A stretch of DNA of 64,000 nt from Escherichia coli (GTDB lineage: Bacteria > Pseudomonadota > Gammaproteobacteria > Enterobacterales > Enterobacteriaceae): assembly GCF_003334405.1 (NCBI RefSeq), contig NZ_QOWM01000004.1. The stretch is one strand, 5' to 3'. How positions within the stretch are numbered: the first letter of the stretch is position 1; every line of letters starts with the position of its first letter. Below, piece after piece: positions 47,558 through 58,923 of this stretch. The notes beneath the pieces are model-generated. The model did not search any database and was not told where the DNA came from. It was given only the letters and a program-made list of their open reading frames with translations. Position numbers and translations under genes: made by a program.

Positions 47558-47971
47558 TTATGCCCGGACTAGCGCTTTTTCTGAAACAACCATTTTTATT
47601 TGCCCCTGGCTGGTGAAGTGTACGCTCATCCTGTGGCTTTTTTGTAGTTGCTGATAGAGCTCATCAGGTATTGCTAAGCTCTCTGCATATTCTTGCGGCG
47701 TATATTGGTAGGCTGCATGATGCTGCTGTTTTTGAAAACGCAGCTTATTGTACAGCGCCCAGACAATTAACACGACGGCATTCGCCACTGCCAGCAAAAA
47801 ATAGAACTGAAGTCGGCTTCTGGCCTCGCTTTGCCAGTAATAACCCGTCAGCAGATCCATGGCGAATAAGAATATGAACAACGCAAATAATGTCCACAAG
47901 ATGGTTGTGGCAACATAATCAACCAGTAAACGTACTGGTGATTGTCGGGTCGTAATAATTAAATTGTTCAT
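47558..47971 (-). CDS. pgaD: PGA synthesis accessory membrane protein
   Basis: Track ORF of 137 aa, [26 protein letters not shown]. Confidence 0.93.
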
Positions 47972-47972
47972 A

Positions 47973-49298
47973 TTAACCTCTCAGAATCCCGCGATCGGGA
48001 CTTACCCAACGGGCGCGTTGCTTTTTAGGCATCAACATGACTCGTGTAAATGATACCAATGTCGTTGCCAGGCTCAGCATCCAGAAAATAACCGGGAACC
48101 AAATAATCCAGAAAAGCGATGAAGTCAGATTATGCTCATAGCGATTCTCGATCATCAGGCTGACAATAAATTGCAGTAAACATAACGTACACAATAATAT
48201 TCCGGCAGTATGTGTCGCAGCGATATGTGTCAATTCAATATTTAACGGTACACCGGCAAGTTGGACTGCGTAAATAATGAAACCGACCAGGCAGGTGAAG
48301 GCCCATATTGTCGTCAGGCAGTATTCAAAAAACAGCGGCCACATTCGAAAGTTTTCTTTGCGCCACAACCTTGTCATATTTTTGAGGAATACTTCTGCAC
48401 CGCCCTGAGCCCAGCGCAGGCGCTGTTTCCACAGCCCTTTTAACGTTTCAGGCATTAATATCCAGCACAGTGCCCGTGGCTCGTAAAAAATCGTCCACTG
48501 ATTCAACTGCAGCTTCCAGCTAATATCAATATCTTCGGTGATCATATCGTCACTCCAGTAACCCACTTCTGCCAGGGCGCTGCGACGAAATGCGGCAATA
48601 ACACCGGAAACGGTAAATACGTTTCCATAGATACGCTGGGTTCGCTTGATCAAACCAATAATTGAGGAATACTCGCCAACCTGAATTTTACCCACCAGGG
48701 TAGAACGTGTTCGAATACGAGGATTACCGGTTACGGCACCCACACGCGGGTTGTACAACATCGGTTCCACAATATATGCCGCCGCATCGCGGTCTAATAA
48801 CGCATCGCCATCAATGCACACCAGATATTCACTTTTCGCCGCGGCAGCTCCGGTTTTAAGCGCAATGGCTTTCCCCTGGTTTTGCGCCAGATGAATGACC
48901 CGCAAATGGGGAATTTGTGCAGCCATGCGATCCAGGATGGCACGGGTTTTATCTGTTGAACCGTCATTTACGGCAATAACTTCAATGTTCTCATAACGCT
49001 GTGCTAAAGCGGCGTGTATGGTTTCCTCAACGTTTTTCTCCTCATTAAAACAGGGAATGATAATGGAGATAGACGGATTATCTTTCAACTGGGGAGCTGG
49101 TGCGTTTTCTCCCCACGGCCAGTGGCGTTCACGATAGACCCAGAAATAGACGCCGCCAACAATCCACATAATGGACATAAAAAACGGCCAGAAGAAAACG
49201 AACCTCATCATCAGTTCACCAGAGTGAAAGTACGCTACGCATAGGGGTATGCATAACACCAGACATAATATAAAAAACGATACGATGCGATTAATCAT
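47973..49298 (-). CDS. pgaC: Poly-beta-1,6-N-acetylglucosamine synthase (GT2 glycosyltransferase)
   Basis: Track ORF of 441 aa; GT2 motifs ([13 protein letters not shown] QxxRW). Confidence 0.95.
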
Positions 49299-51309
49299 TT
49301 TTCGGATACCAGGCTGTTGAAAACTCAGGACGAATAAGGTCTATTTCAGGTTGGTTATGCAGAAAATTGTCGGGATAATAACCATAGTTTTTCACTCCAT
49401 TCAGTTGTAATAGGCTCATCCAGTGAGCGAGTTGTTGCGAAGAAATAGCCTGATGCTGACCATTTTTCTGCCAGTTTTGTGCCTGTAATTCTAAAATAGA
49501 TTTGTCTTTAGCCTGAGGGATGTTTTTAATTTGATTGGTCAATTGTATTAACCATTGGTCAGCCGATTTTTCTGCGACACCTTCCAGATAAGGCATAGCC
49601 ATAATAGCGGTCCAGTCATAGCTTTTTAGGAAATCAGCATAATTCTGTGCAAACCAGGCTTCACTTTCAGGTTGTATTACCGGAAGTGCAAAAATATTTC
49701 GTGCAGTTTTAATATGTGGACCGCGAATGGCTTTTACGCGCGCACTAAGTTCTAAAGTGAAGTCAGTTAACGCACGACTTTTAAAGCGGGCCCACTGTTT
49801 AAATTGCTCCGGGTTTTGTCGAATTTCGCTCAGACTCCCGCTAAAGCCTGCTTGCTGATAAGCCGTGATAGCCGGTGCACTGGCATCTTCATAATCTGAA
49901 AGCAAAGCATCATCGTGGAACAATATGCCATCAAAAGCAGCATGTCCGGCAAGATCTTCATATAACATGCCAACTTGTGCTCTGACTCTGTCATCGAAAG
50001 GAGAGAGACGGTGATATTGTTCAGGATGAATTTGTGCTTTTTTCTCCCCTGTTGGTAAGTATTTTACTCGCGTTAATGTGGGATCTAAATCCCAGCTTAA
50101 TACCGGCATCCACGCATAGATGTTTACACCTGAGCGGGTACGTAATTGCCAGGCAACCCGACTAAAAATATCTGCTTTCATTGGTAGCAAACGATTTGGA
50201 AACCAGACCTCTTTGACCAGCCCATCACCATCGGGATCAGCAAATGCCTGCAAATACACGGTTGATATTTGCATATCTTTCACCCGCTGAATTAGCACAT
50301 CAATATTGCGATCCATTTGCTGGAGGTTTTCGTCATAAACGTAATCAAGATCGATATGCATTATCCGTTGTGGTGATTTTTCCTGTACGGTAATAATTTG
50401 CTGGGCAAACTCTTTTAATGAGGGATTATTGGCGATTAATACCCGCGGAATGGAATCCAATTGCGACGCATTTGCCAAACCTGATTCAAGGGTGAAGAAC
50501 ATGTCATAACCGATTTTTTTTAATTCCTCTATCGCTATGCCATTCGCTTCGCCATAAGGCCAAACAAAAACGTGTGGATTTACCTCAACCTTTGTACGCA
50601 GGTATTCCGTCATTTTTACAGCATCCAGACGAATTCTTTCCCGGTATTCTGCTGCGGTTTCATACCGTGCGTGGTCAGTAAAATATGCACGATTTACATA
50701 TACAGGCAATAAGCTGCCGGTGGCATTAGCCTGAATACCGTAGTGAGAATTCCATGTATGAGAAGCGAGCTCAACGAGCCGGGAACGCGCAACTTCTCGC
50801 ACTTGTTGCCACGTGGCAAAATATTCTCGATCGACCAACTCATCGCCAAATTTTACTTGTTTATCCGCTGGCGTATCGACCCAACTGCCGACGGGGGCCC
50901 ATACAGCAGGCCACTGGAAGGCCTGAAGAATTGGGAAGACGCGGGTATAAAAACTCTGGTAGCCGTCATCAAAAGTCAGCACTACAGCTTTTTCCGGTAG
51001 CGGTTTTCCTCCTCGATGTGCTTCACGAATTTGAGCAATACTGACCGGTTGATAACCGTTCTCGCGCAGCCAGGCAAATTGTTCACGCAGTGCTGATGTC
51101 CGCACTGACATAAAACGCTGGTCGGCAGCTTCGTCTTCAACGTTATGCCATGAAATCGCTACAAAACCATTATGCGGCCACGGTTGCTCGGCGAGTAAAG
51201 ATTCGCGATCCTGTGGCGGTATAAATGATGTTCTTGACTGGCTAATGCACGCGGTGAGCATAATTATACTCACCAGCATCAGGAGATATTTATTTCCATT
51301 ACGTAACAT
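49291..51309 (-). CDS. pgaB: PGA N-deacetylase / export lipoprotein
   Basis: Track ORF of 672 aa; lipoprotein signal LTACISQ; 8-nt overlap with pgaC start. Confidence 0.95.
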
Positions 51310-51317
51310 ATTTATCC

Positions 51318-58613: not shown

Positions 58614-58641
58614 AAAAAAAAGCCCGTACTTTCGTACGAGC
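58614..58641 (-). terminator. Intrinsic terminator copy in repeat unit 2
   Basis: Identical hairpin plus U8, 181 bp from the unit-1 copy. Confidence 0.6.
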
Positions 58642-58794
58642 TCTTCTTTAAATATGGCGGTGAGGGGGGGATTGACTCGCTTCGCTCGCCCTGCGGGCAG
58701 CCCGCTCACTGCGTTCACGGTCTGTCCAACTGGCTGTCGCCAGTTGTCGAACCCCGGTCGGGGCTTCTCATCCCCCCGGTGTGTGCAATATACG

Positions 58795-58822
58795 AAAAAA
58801 AAGCCCGTACTTTCGTACGAGC
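58795..58822 (-). terminator. Intrinsic terminator of serX (hairpin plus U8, 13 nt after the tRNA CCA end)
   Basis: Hairpin 58803-58822 and A8 on plus strand 58795-58802; GNRA (GAAA) loop. Confidence 0.75.
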
Positions 58823-58835
58823 TCTTCTTTAAATA

Positions 58836-58923
58836 TGGCGGTGAGGGGGGGATTCGAACCCCCGATACGTTGCCGTATACACACTTTCCAGGCGTGCTCC
58901 TTCAGCCACTCGGACACCTCACC
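58836..58923 (-). tRNA. serX: tRNA-Ser (GGA anticodon), 88 nt with encoded CCA
   Basis: Minus-strand sequence GGTGAGGTGTCCGAGTGGCTGAAGGAGCACGCCTGGAAAGTGTGTATACGGCAACGTATCGGGGGTTCGAATCCCCCCCTCACCGCCA; long variable arm typical of tRNA-Ser. Confidence 0.95.

Follow-up and report, generated by a model that had tools for sequence, protein, structure and literature searches.

The question raised by this locus is how a block of AT-rich genes came to lie beside a tRNA gene in the chromosome of Escherichia coli. The stretch that we analyzed (the window) comprises 64,000 nucleotides of contig NZ_QOWM01000004.1 (assembly GCF_003334405.1), and the block in question, at 47558-58923, contains the pgaABCD operon, dgcT, a copy of the insertion sequence (IS) IS3, a fragment of ymdE, and ycdU, followed by a repeat array and by serX, a tRNA-Ser(GGA) gene. 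An earlier note, made from the letters of the window alone, read it as one old, horizontally acquired island that integrated at serX and was later degraded. It is very probable that the block is instead a mosaic, i.e., that a hot spot between the phoH terminator and an array of RtT-type repeats holds four components of different age and origin. The layers, their junctions and their distributions can be read directly from the genomes compared.

The segment 47000-59500 of the window is 100% identical to E. coli NCTC9087, and every complete E. coli genome compared (5,426 of 5,426) matches it at least in part. RefSeq gives both the identical record and MG1655 the gene order phoH, pgaD, pgaC, pgaB, pgaA, dgcT, IS3 (insEF), the ymdE pseudogene, ycdU, serX, ghrA and ycdX. 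The window is K-12-like but is not MG1655: it has no IS1D upstream of gfcA (about position 12005), its efeU frame, belonging to a pseudogene in MG1655, is uninterrupted (279 codons; 42798-43637), and between ycdU and serX it carries one 181-bp repeat fewer.

That the DNA from pgaD through ycdU is more AT-rich than its flanks, as the earlier note had judged by eye, is borne out by calculation. The G+C content (GC) of the block without IS3 is 43.6%, against 51.5% for the remainder of the window, and per gene it is 0.433 for the 7 block genes versus 0.518 for the 44 others (Mann-Whitney p=4e-5). The GC and codon-usage check proposed in that note thus gives a clear discontinuity in GC and in GC at third codon positions (0.438 versus 0.547, p=6e-4), while the codon-usage distance of the block genes from the others is only marginally raised (p=0.07). 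The dip is uneven, with 0.46 for the pga operon, 0.34 for the pgaA-dgcT spacer, 0.39 for dgcT and 0.41 for ymdE'-ycdU, and the region also includes GC-rich parts, namely IS3 (0.54) and the repeat array (0.56). Elsewhere in the window yccE (25487-26743; GC 0.34) and csgF/csgE (62982-63812; 0.42-0.43) are AT-rich as well, so low GC is not unique to the block.

The content of the locus was compared among relatives by a GhrA scan with one genome per species, which gave 80 loci. Wherever a locus reaches far enough, the tRNA-Ser(GGA) gene lies ~230 bp upstream of ghrA and on the other strand; efeB-phoH follows after a further 0.2-8 kb, the intervening cargo being unrelated. At this efeB-phoH-slot-tRNA-Ser-ghrA-ycdX locus the block is absent from 78 of the 80 species representatives, and among the 80 species loci pga genes occupy the slot only in a divergent Escherichia (L007). 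Near-empty slots are seen in one Escherichia lineage (L011, 196 bp) and in several Citrobacter (L029, L030 and L032, about 235 bp). E. albertii has a DUF2726 gene there, Escherichia sp. E1V33 has two small AT-rich open reading frames (ORFs), E. whittamii has fimbrial genes along with others, and further genera carry unrelated genes.

Frequencies within E. coli were obtained by sorting the 5,426 complete genomes into BLAST coverage classes. The pgaABCD genes are present in 4,410 of them (81%), 80 of these with an allele that is ~83% identical, and the phoH-DUF2726-serX form, nearly mutually exclusive with the pga form, in 1,045 (19%). The ymdE'-ycdU pair occurs in 2,675 genomes (49%), the exact dgcT/IS3 junction of the window in 2,299 (42%), and a full 15-gene cluster described below in 384 (7%). 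Strain 40EC has the DUF2726 form, yet its PhoH and GhrA proteins are identical to those of K-12, and the whole slot is thus exchanged between close relatives, presumably via homologous recombination in the flanks. Judged by these comparisons, the phoH-serX interval is a hot spot of gene content, and what E. coli carries there is accessory.

The island character of the region was already known. Goldstone et al. (2016, Sci Rep, PMC4951805) described a 'genome island flanked by efeB/phoH and ghrA/ycdXYZ', found pgaABCD-ycdT-insEF-ymdE-ycdU to be missing in 10-20% of phylogroup A, and noted that IS3 truncates ymdE, a longer, 945-bp ymdE being present in other phylogroups; Cimdins et al. (2017, PMC5635171) reported strains without pga and ycdT. 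The genes and boundaries of the region in these two papers are the same as those of the block. Both papers treat it as one unit, in which the layers, the OI-47 origin, the nested IS3 deletions and the nature of the repeats are not resolved. OI-47, OI-48 and RtT were likewise known, and what we add is the resolution into layers, the series of deletions at IS3, the source of ymdE'-ycdU and the finding that the repeats are ancestral.

The reiterated copies of the tRNA 3' end that the earlier note listed are certainly there. The 19-mer TGGCGGTGAGGGGGGGATT, the 3' end of serX, occurs exactly three times, at 58474, 58655 and 58836, with none expected by chance, and its copies sit in a 181-bp tandem repeat (2.4 copies, 100% identical). 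Two complete units on the minus strand occupy 58474-58835, with RtT-type RNAs at 58474-58610 and 58655-58791; distal to them is a truncated unit (58413-58473, minus strand; unit positions 121-181), which consists of the spacer with its terminator hairpin only, homology to the repeat beginning at 58413/58414. Each full unit is made of an RtT-type part that ends in the 19-nt serX 3' end and of a 44-nt spacer with a terminator-like hairpin and a T run. Rfam model RF00391 matches twice over its positions 1-130 of 130, with 46.3 bits against a gathering score of 45, a thin margin, and RefSeq labels the serX-linked element 'RtT sRNA' in several other genomes.

The units share their layout with the tyrT/tyrV repeats and RtT (RF00391; rttR of K-12): both are tandem units of ~180 bp that lie downstream of a tRNA gene, on the same strand, and end in the 3'-terminal ~19 nt of the tRNA (19 nt in both cases). 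The tyrV-linked RtT and the serX units also share the motifs GGATGAGAAGC...GACC...GGTTCGAC and CCCG.AGGGCGA.GCG...GAGT.AATCC, so that the body motifs are common to both, whereas the stem bases come from tRNA-Ser in one and from tRNA-Tyr in the other. The unit resembles the 3' half of a tRNA, with the 5' strand of the T stem and TTCGA, an insert of ~75 nt in the T loop, and then the 3' strand of the T stem (AATCC), the acceptor and CCA; the tyrV-linked RtT has the same design with the bases of tRNA-Tyr.

From 0 to 3 copies of the unit stand behind tRNA-Ser(GGA) in nearly all genera examined, among them Escherichia, Citrobacter, Salmonella, Enterobacter, Klebsiella, Leclercia and Kluyvera, and in C. 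amalonaticus two full units and nothing else separate the phoH terminator from serX. An alignment of 39 units supports a six-helix structure of 34 pairs (97.5% of cells paired), in which 10 of the 34 pairs changed on both sides, versus 4.7+/-1.3 in shuffled alignments, none of 500 of which reached this number, and 1-4 in slid controls. The 3' 16 nt of the unit equal the 3' end of the linked tRNA in every species examined, variant tRNAs included, and the opposing 5' strand of the terminal stem shows matching changes, a pattern of co-evolution between unit and tRNA. Where it meets the cargo, the left-most unit of each array is cut short, at unit position 32, 43, 80, 97, 114, 121 or 144, and in the arrays compared across loci a cargo/array junction is never found at the 14-bp core of the serX attachment (att) site. 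By structure and distribution, the serX repeats are RtT-type units and not integration scars of the block, and the array is ancestral to Enterobacteriaceae, being present even where there is no cargo.

Each RtT unit holds a spare copy of the integrase core. One can imagine that the units at serX, and by homology those at tyrT/tyrV, are more than inert duplications and act either as processed RNAs with a separate function or as a buffer for recombination, although we consider this improbable. If true, such a buffer could decide at which point cargo accumulates, given that the junctions of all cargo are within the distal unit. The copy number of the unit also varies within E. coli, with two full units in the window, three in MG1655 (1096830-1097564 of that genome) and zero or one in others, and in O158:H23 the spacer between ycdU and serX measures 1.27 kb.

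Genuine integrase-type islands at serX have a different arrangement. serX (58836-58923, minus strand), the only tRNA gene found in the window, contains in its last 14 nt (58836-58849) the att core, TGGCGGTGAGGGGG on the plus strand. serX is a documented integration site, used by OI-48/SpLE1/TAI of O157:H7, and 14-bp direct repeats were described for OI-43/OI-48 and the Shigella SRL island (PMC3064760); the 14-bp core of the OI-48 and SRL islands is the same as that in the window. In AR_0069 and EA7 the junction between chromosome and island falls directly after TGGCGGTGAGGGGG. The AR_0069 island is 74 kb long, and its far end lies 150 bp from an intact serX with no RtT unit in between; the idea that this island used the core copy of an RtT unit as a secondary att site was rejected because the far end abuts the tRNA itself. 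Unlike O157:H7 with its OI-48, the window has no OI-48-type island, and its att core is unoccupied.

Genuine serX islands are inserted between the array and the tRNA gene and not distal to the array, whereas the block lies 3' of serX with the 423 bp of the array (58413-58835) in between. A relaxed search for the 19-mer (up to 3 mismatches) and the 14-mer (up to 2) returned only 58474, 58655 and 58836, with no copy at any of the borders (phoH, dgcT/OI-47 and ycdU/array). As the earlier note had remarked, an integrase is missing: of the genes annotated in 47558-58923, only that of the IS3 transposase encodes a recombinase. Of the signs of a tRNA-associated island, atypical composition (GC p=4e-5) and patchy distribution (pga 81%, ycdU 49%, both absent from the locus in other genera) are present. 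In the serX islands examined, the integrase gene is at the end remote from the intact tRNA and adjoins the displaced 3' fragment or RtT unit, which is the opposite of the P4-type layout; the positions concerned are 1820-3022 of L086 and 26411-26648 of L109 (AR_0069) and 1292-2494 of L106 (O157:H7).

The first layer of the block is the pgaDCBA-dgcT module (47552-55652, 8.1 kb). Its left edge is the phoH terminator (47509-47551, plus strand), which is common to all forms of the slot: the junctions of the K-12, B2 and DUF2726 types are identical up to GCTTTGTTTT and diverge from 47552 onward. Four genes follow on the minus strand, pgaD (47558-47971), pgaC (47973-49298), pgaB (49291-51309) and pgaA (51318-53741), with order pgaA-B-C-D, coordinates and lengths as in MG1655 b1021-b1024 and all ORFs intact. 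Their products make and export poly-beta-1,6-N-acetylglucosamine (PNAG), a biofilm polysaccharide, and are a porin (PgaA), a deacetylase (PgaB), a glycosyltransferase (PgaC) and its small partner (PgaD). An AT-rich divergent control region of 586 bp (53742-54327) separates pgaA from dgcT (ycdT; 54328-55686, plus strand), the gene of a membrane diguanylate cyclase with MASE4 and GGDEF domains. In EA7 the left neighbor of pga-dgcT is IS1 with a type I restriction system and not phoH. In the window, the Rfam family Ysr251 (a Yersinia antisense small RNA family) has a strong match, with 189 bits versus a gathering score of 100, at 47310-47503 on the minus strand, antisense to the 3' end of phoH.

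The right edge of the module is revealed by other alleles. The match of CFT073-type dgcT to the window ends at 55652, and dgcT ends with ...KDDE* in the B2 type (WCHEC4533, and likewise CFT073) and with ...KDDD* in the divergent allele (L007, EA7). In both, the dgcT stop directly abuts an RtT unit truncated at unit position 80, followed by serX. Because two alleles ~20% apart share it, we take this junction to be the older state. Between K-12 and L007 pgaD and pgaC are ~91-92% identical, like ghrA, and pgaB, pgaA and dgcT are 78-80% identical, against 91-97% for the flanks of the two pga alleles. Full-length close relatives of DgcT (at least 64% identity) come, as far as they are named, from Escherichia coli and, in one entry, from Salmonella enterica, most being without a name. 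Among the DgcT relatives checked for neighborhood only a 64% relative adjoins pgaA; more distant relatives (42-46% identity) were considered as keepers of the pga neighborhood and rejected, one of them lying in a yeaI/yeaJ-like context. Annotation and the relaxed core search revealed no integrase, att core or flanking duplication for the pga-dgcT module. Features of horizontal transfer have reportedly been ascribed to pgaABCD by Wang, Preston and Romeo in 2004, an attribution that a full-text search did not confirm.

The right-hand part of the block has another source. The gene fragment noted earlier, ymdE' (56955-57298, plus strand), is what remains of a 942-nt gene for a FabD-like acyl carrier protein (ACP) S-malonyltransferase (family matches fabD/mdcH), namely its 3'-terminal 344 nt, beginning near nt 599, and it cannot encode a complete acyltransferase. 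Together with the right end it is 98.4% identical, over the 446 bp compared, to strain 141, where ymdE is intact. The adjacent ycdU (57295-58281, plus strand) is intact and encodes a 328-aa protein, predicted to be an all-helical inner-membrane protein, whose homologues are confined to Enterobacterales and for which our searches gave no family or fold assignment. In Enterobacter mori and several metagenomic contigs an intact FabD-like acyltransferase of 310-315 aa and YcdU close a conserved cluster of 15 genes. Its genes 1-5 encode a phosphopantetheinyl transferase, a ketoreductase, a FabA/Z-like dehydratase, an ACP and a GcvT-like protein; genes 6-8 an 852-aa double ketosynthase, a second ketosynthase and a protein without assigned function; genes 9-12 an ABC ATPase, another protein without assigned function, a LolC/E-like permease and a LolA-like protein; and genes 13-15 a 462-aa protein without assigned function, the acyltransferase and YcdU. 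The cluster, copies of which lie at L098 10092-24885 (O158:H23), L099 17481-32274 and L096 4149-18985, is type-II fatty-acid/polyketide-like; its export set resembles LolCDE/LolA, and three of its proteins belong to no family. It is found in Enterobacter, Kosakonia, Mixta and other Enterobacterales besides E. coli, and in two contigs conjugative-transfer genes lie beside it.

The intact cluster, and with it the intact acyltransferase that the earlier note had suggested looking for along with empty sites, stands at the same dgcT-ycdU site in O157:H7 TX 376-2 and strain 141, and at the same locus in O158:H23. In TX 376-2 and strain 141 phoH-pgaDCBA-dgcT is followed by genes for an EAL protein, a hypothetical protein, a winged-helix regulator and an SDR protein, a fimbrial operon and genes for TpsA and ShlB, and then by the 15-gene cluster with the intact 942-nt ymdE and ycdU, an RtT unit and the integrase of a serX island; from dgcT to the end of ycdU this measures 33 kb. 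By gene content and position, the 33-kb segment corresponds to OI-47, which according to a review carries the EAL gene vmpA. Both ends of the window's segment are continuous with the O157 segment, and only these two ends survive. On the left they comprise 44 bp (55653-55696, plus strand), identical to O157-type strain 141 up to ...AAAGCGGCATTT, which supply the last 11 codons and the stop of K-12-type dgcT; on the right, ymdE'-ycdU is followed by a 131-bp tail (58282-58412), the same sequence as after ycdU in AR_0069. That the 3' end of K-12-type dgcT (last 11 codons, 55653-55686) is O157-type and runs on into the island in O157 indicates that the island, on insertion, took the place of the original end of dgcT along with part of the truncated RtT unit. 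In comparison with OI-47 of O157:H7 the window retains about 1.5 kb of the ~33-kb segment, and these continuities identify ymdE'-ycdU as the right-hand stump of an OI-47-type island.

The earlier note had linked biofilm polysaccharide synthesis and c-di-GMP signaling (pga, dgcT) with ymdE and ycdU. This link does not hold, the adjacency being a by-product of deletion: the intact ymdE-ycdU pair closes an unrelated 15-gene cluster, and the 'orphan' ymdE and ycdU of K-12 are leftovers of that cluster and not partners of pga in biofilm formation, which corrects a tempting functional inference. The only functional clue to YcdU is its place at the end of a lipid/polyketide-like cluster with a Lol-like exporter. 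The origin of the pair may also bear on reports of ymdE-ycdU as markers of mastitis-associated E. coli. A different product of erosion is seen in O158:H23, where pgaA is followed by ~170 bp, 5'-truncated shlB, the cluster, ycdU and serX. In this strain dgcT is gone, and the ~170 bp left upstream of pgaA are fused to the truncated shlB (L098 8439-8612). Compared with the 586-bp pgaA-dgcT control region of K-12, this remainder means that regulation of pga is probably altered in O158:H23-type strains.

The remaining component is the IS3 element (IS3D of MG1655; 55697-56954, minus strand), which is 1,258 bp long, has insE-insF annotated and ends in TGATCCTACCC...GGGTAAGATCA. In this it agrees with the usual make-up of IS3, which has inverted repeats at both termini and two overlapping ORFs that a frameshift joins. 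The window copy has no 3-bp target-site duplication, its flanks being TTT and GTG, which fits a deletion or inter-IS recombination at this copy. On the left it is flanked by GCGGCATTT, as in the O157 sequence, and 2,299 genomes share this flank; its right flank varies, falling at about nt 411 of ymdE in strain 0-4, at nt 599 in the window and K-12, and at about nt 835 in BA92. AR_0069 has no IS3 and reads AAAGC-GGC-GGTTAAAGG, a form that would be the expected product of strain 0-4 losing ATTT and IS3 between GGC repeats. A reading of the AR_0069 and K-12 forms as two independent deletions with almost identical left ends was dropped, as strain 0-4, with IS3 and a longer ymdE', gives one nested series. 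One fixed end, a strain-variable other flank and the absence of the 3-bp duplication are what is seen in adjacent deletions by IS3-family elements, a mechanism that for the window copy is judged from the end points alone. On the simplest reading of the junctions IS3 was inserted once, close to the left end of the island, and a rightward deletion of ~31 kb and a nested series of smaller ones followed, the IS itself being lost now and then.

From these configurations we infer the following order of events and mechanism of deletion. The pga-dgcT module, which most E. coli and one divergent Escherichia carry in the slot, would ancestrally have had its dgcT stop abutting the truncated RtT unit, and it is now exchanged against the DUF2726 cassette, presumably by homologous recombination in the flanks. 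An OI-47-type island of ~33 kb, with an EAL phosphodiesterase, fimbriae, a two-partner secretion pair and the 15-gene cluster, would then have been inserted between dgcT and the array, replacing the last ~43 nt of dgcT. IS3 may have landed about 10 nt past the new dgcT stop and subsequently removed, by deletion or by recombination, the ~31 kb to its right as far as the interior of ymdE, and further nested deletions would have led to the form of K-12 and the window, in which 344 nt of ymdE and ycdU are left. Separately from all this, the 14-bp core of serX is the live attachment site for islands with P4-type integrases, and it is empty here.

Two other explanations have to be weighed against this layered origin. 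One spells out the single island of the earlier note: pgaD-ycdU would have entered by tyrosine-recombinase integration into the 3' end of serX, with the repeats as att scars and the integrase lost later. The low GC of the block, its place on the 3' side of a tRNA gene that is a proven integration site, its variable presence among strains, the IS element and gene fragment within it, and the att-core copies next to it would all agree with such a history. It is nevertheless very improbable and, for the block as a whole, already contradicted: the parts occur at 81%, 49% and 42% with separate junctions; the repeat units, which carry compensatory base changes, occur without cargo in C. amalonaticus, and most genera have them behind tRNA-Ser(GGA); cargo/array junctions fall at unit positions 32-144 and not at the core, no core is found at the phoH border even with 2-3 mismatches, and genuine serX islands lie between array and tRNA. 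What stands of the original proposal is that the DNA is foreign, accessory and tRNA-adjacent and that ymdE'-ycdU is a degraded remnant; the single island with att scars does not. The other explanation confines the foreign DNA to ymdE'-ycdU and IS3 and regards pga-dgcT as ancestral Escherichia DNA, AT-rich for functional reasons and repeatedly lost. L007, with the same site and the same dgcT/RtT junction and with pgaD and pgaC diverged like ghrA (91-92%), speaks for it, as do the lack of mobility genes and att sites and the predominance, among the named close relatives of DgcT (at least 64% identity), of Escherichia coli, with one Salmonella enterica, most being without a name. We regard it as unlikely, because E. 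albertii, E. whittamii, two further Escherichia representatives and all 70+ other Enterobacteriaceae lack the module at this locus, because truly empty sites exist, because its GC is 6-13 points under that of its neighbors, because pgaB, pgaA and dgcT are 78-80% identical where the flanks are 91-97% identical, which suggests a mosaic or imported history, and because DUF2726 replaces pga-dgcT in strains whose PhoH and GhrA are identical to those of K-12.

Several points weigh against the layered origin itself. The order of events is the most parsimonious one for a small number of sequenced configurations and does not derive from a phylogeny of the 5,426 genomes, a few of which may also be misclassified by the coverage classes. 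Later deletions could have erased att cores, so that integrase-mediated entry of pga-dgcT or of OI-47 could have taken place, and an adjacent deletion by IS3 is indistinguishable from recombination between two IS3 copies. Finally, the name OI-47 is based on gene content, on the position between dgcT and ycdU/OI-48 and on the vmpA statement of the review, and not on EDL933 coordinates. The locus is a textbook case of a tRNA-adjacent slot that gains and erodes cargo, and matters little beyond tidy annotation; it also illustrates that repeats of a tRNA end beside an AT-rich block are on their own no proof of integration.

A further observation concerns the tRNA gene itself. In many Enterobacteriaceae two tRNA-Ser(GGA) genes, each with its own RtT units, lie 0.4-5.7 kb apart upstream of ghrA (loci L033, L038, L043-L045, L048, L053, L059, L061-L067, L070, L073, L076, L078, L080, L081 and L083-L085). 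In all six of the loci with ORFs listed, which belong to Enterobacter, Klebsiella, Kluyvera, Leclercia and Trabulsiella, a LysR gene is kept between the two tRNA genes, usually together with pirin and isochorismatase-like genes.

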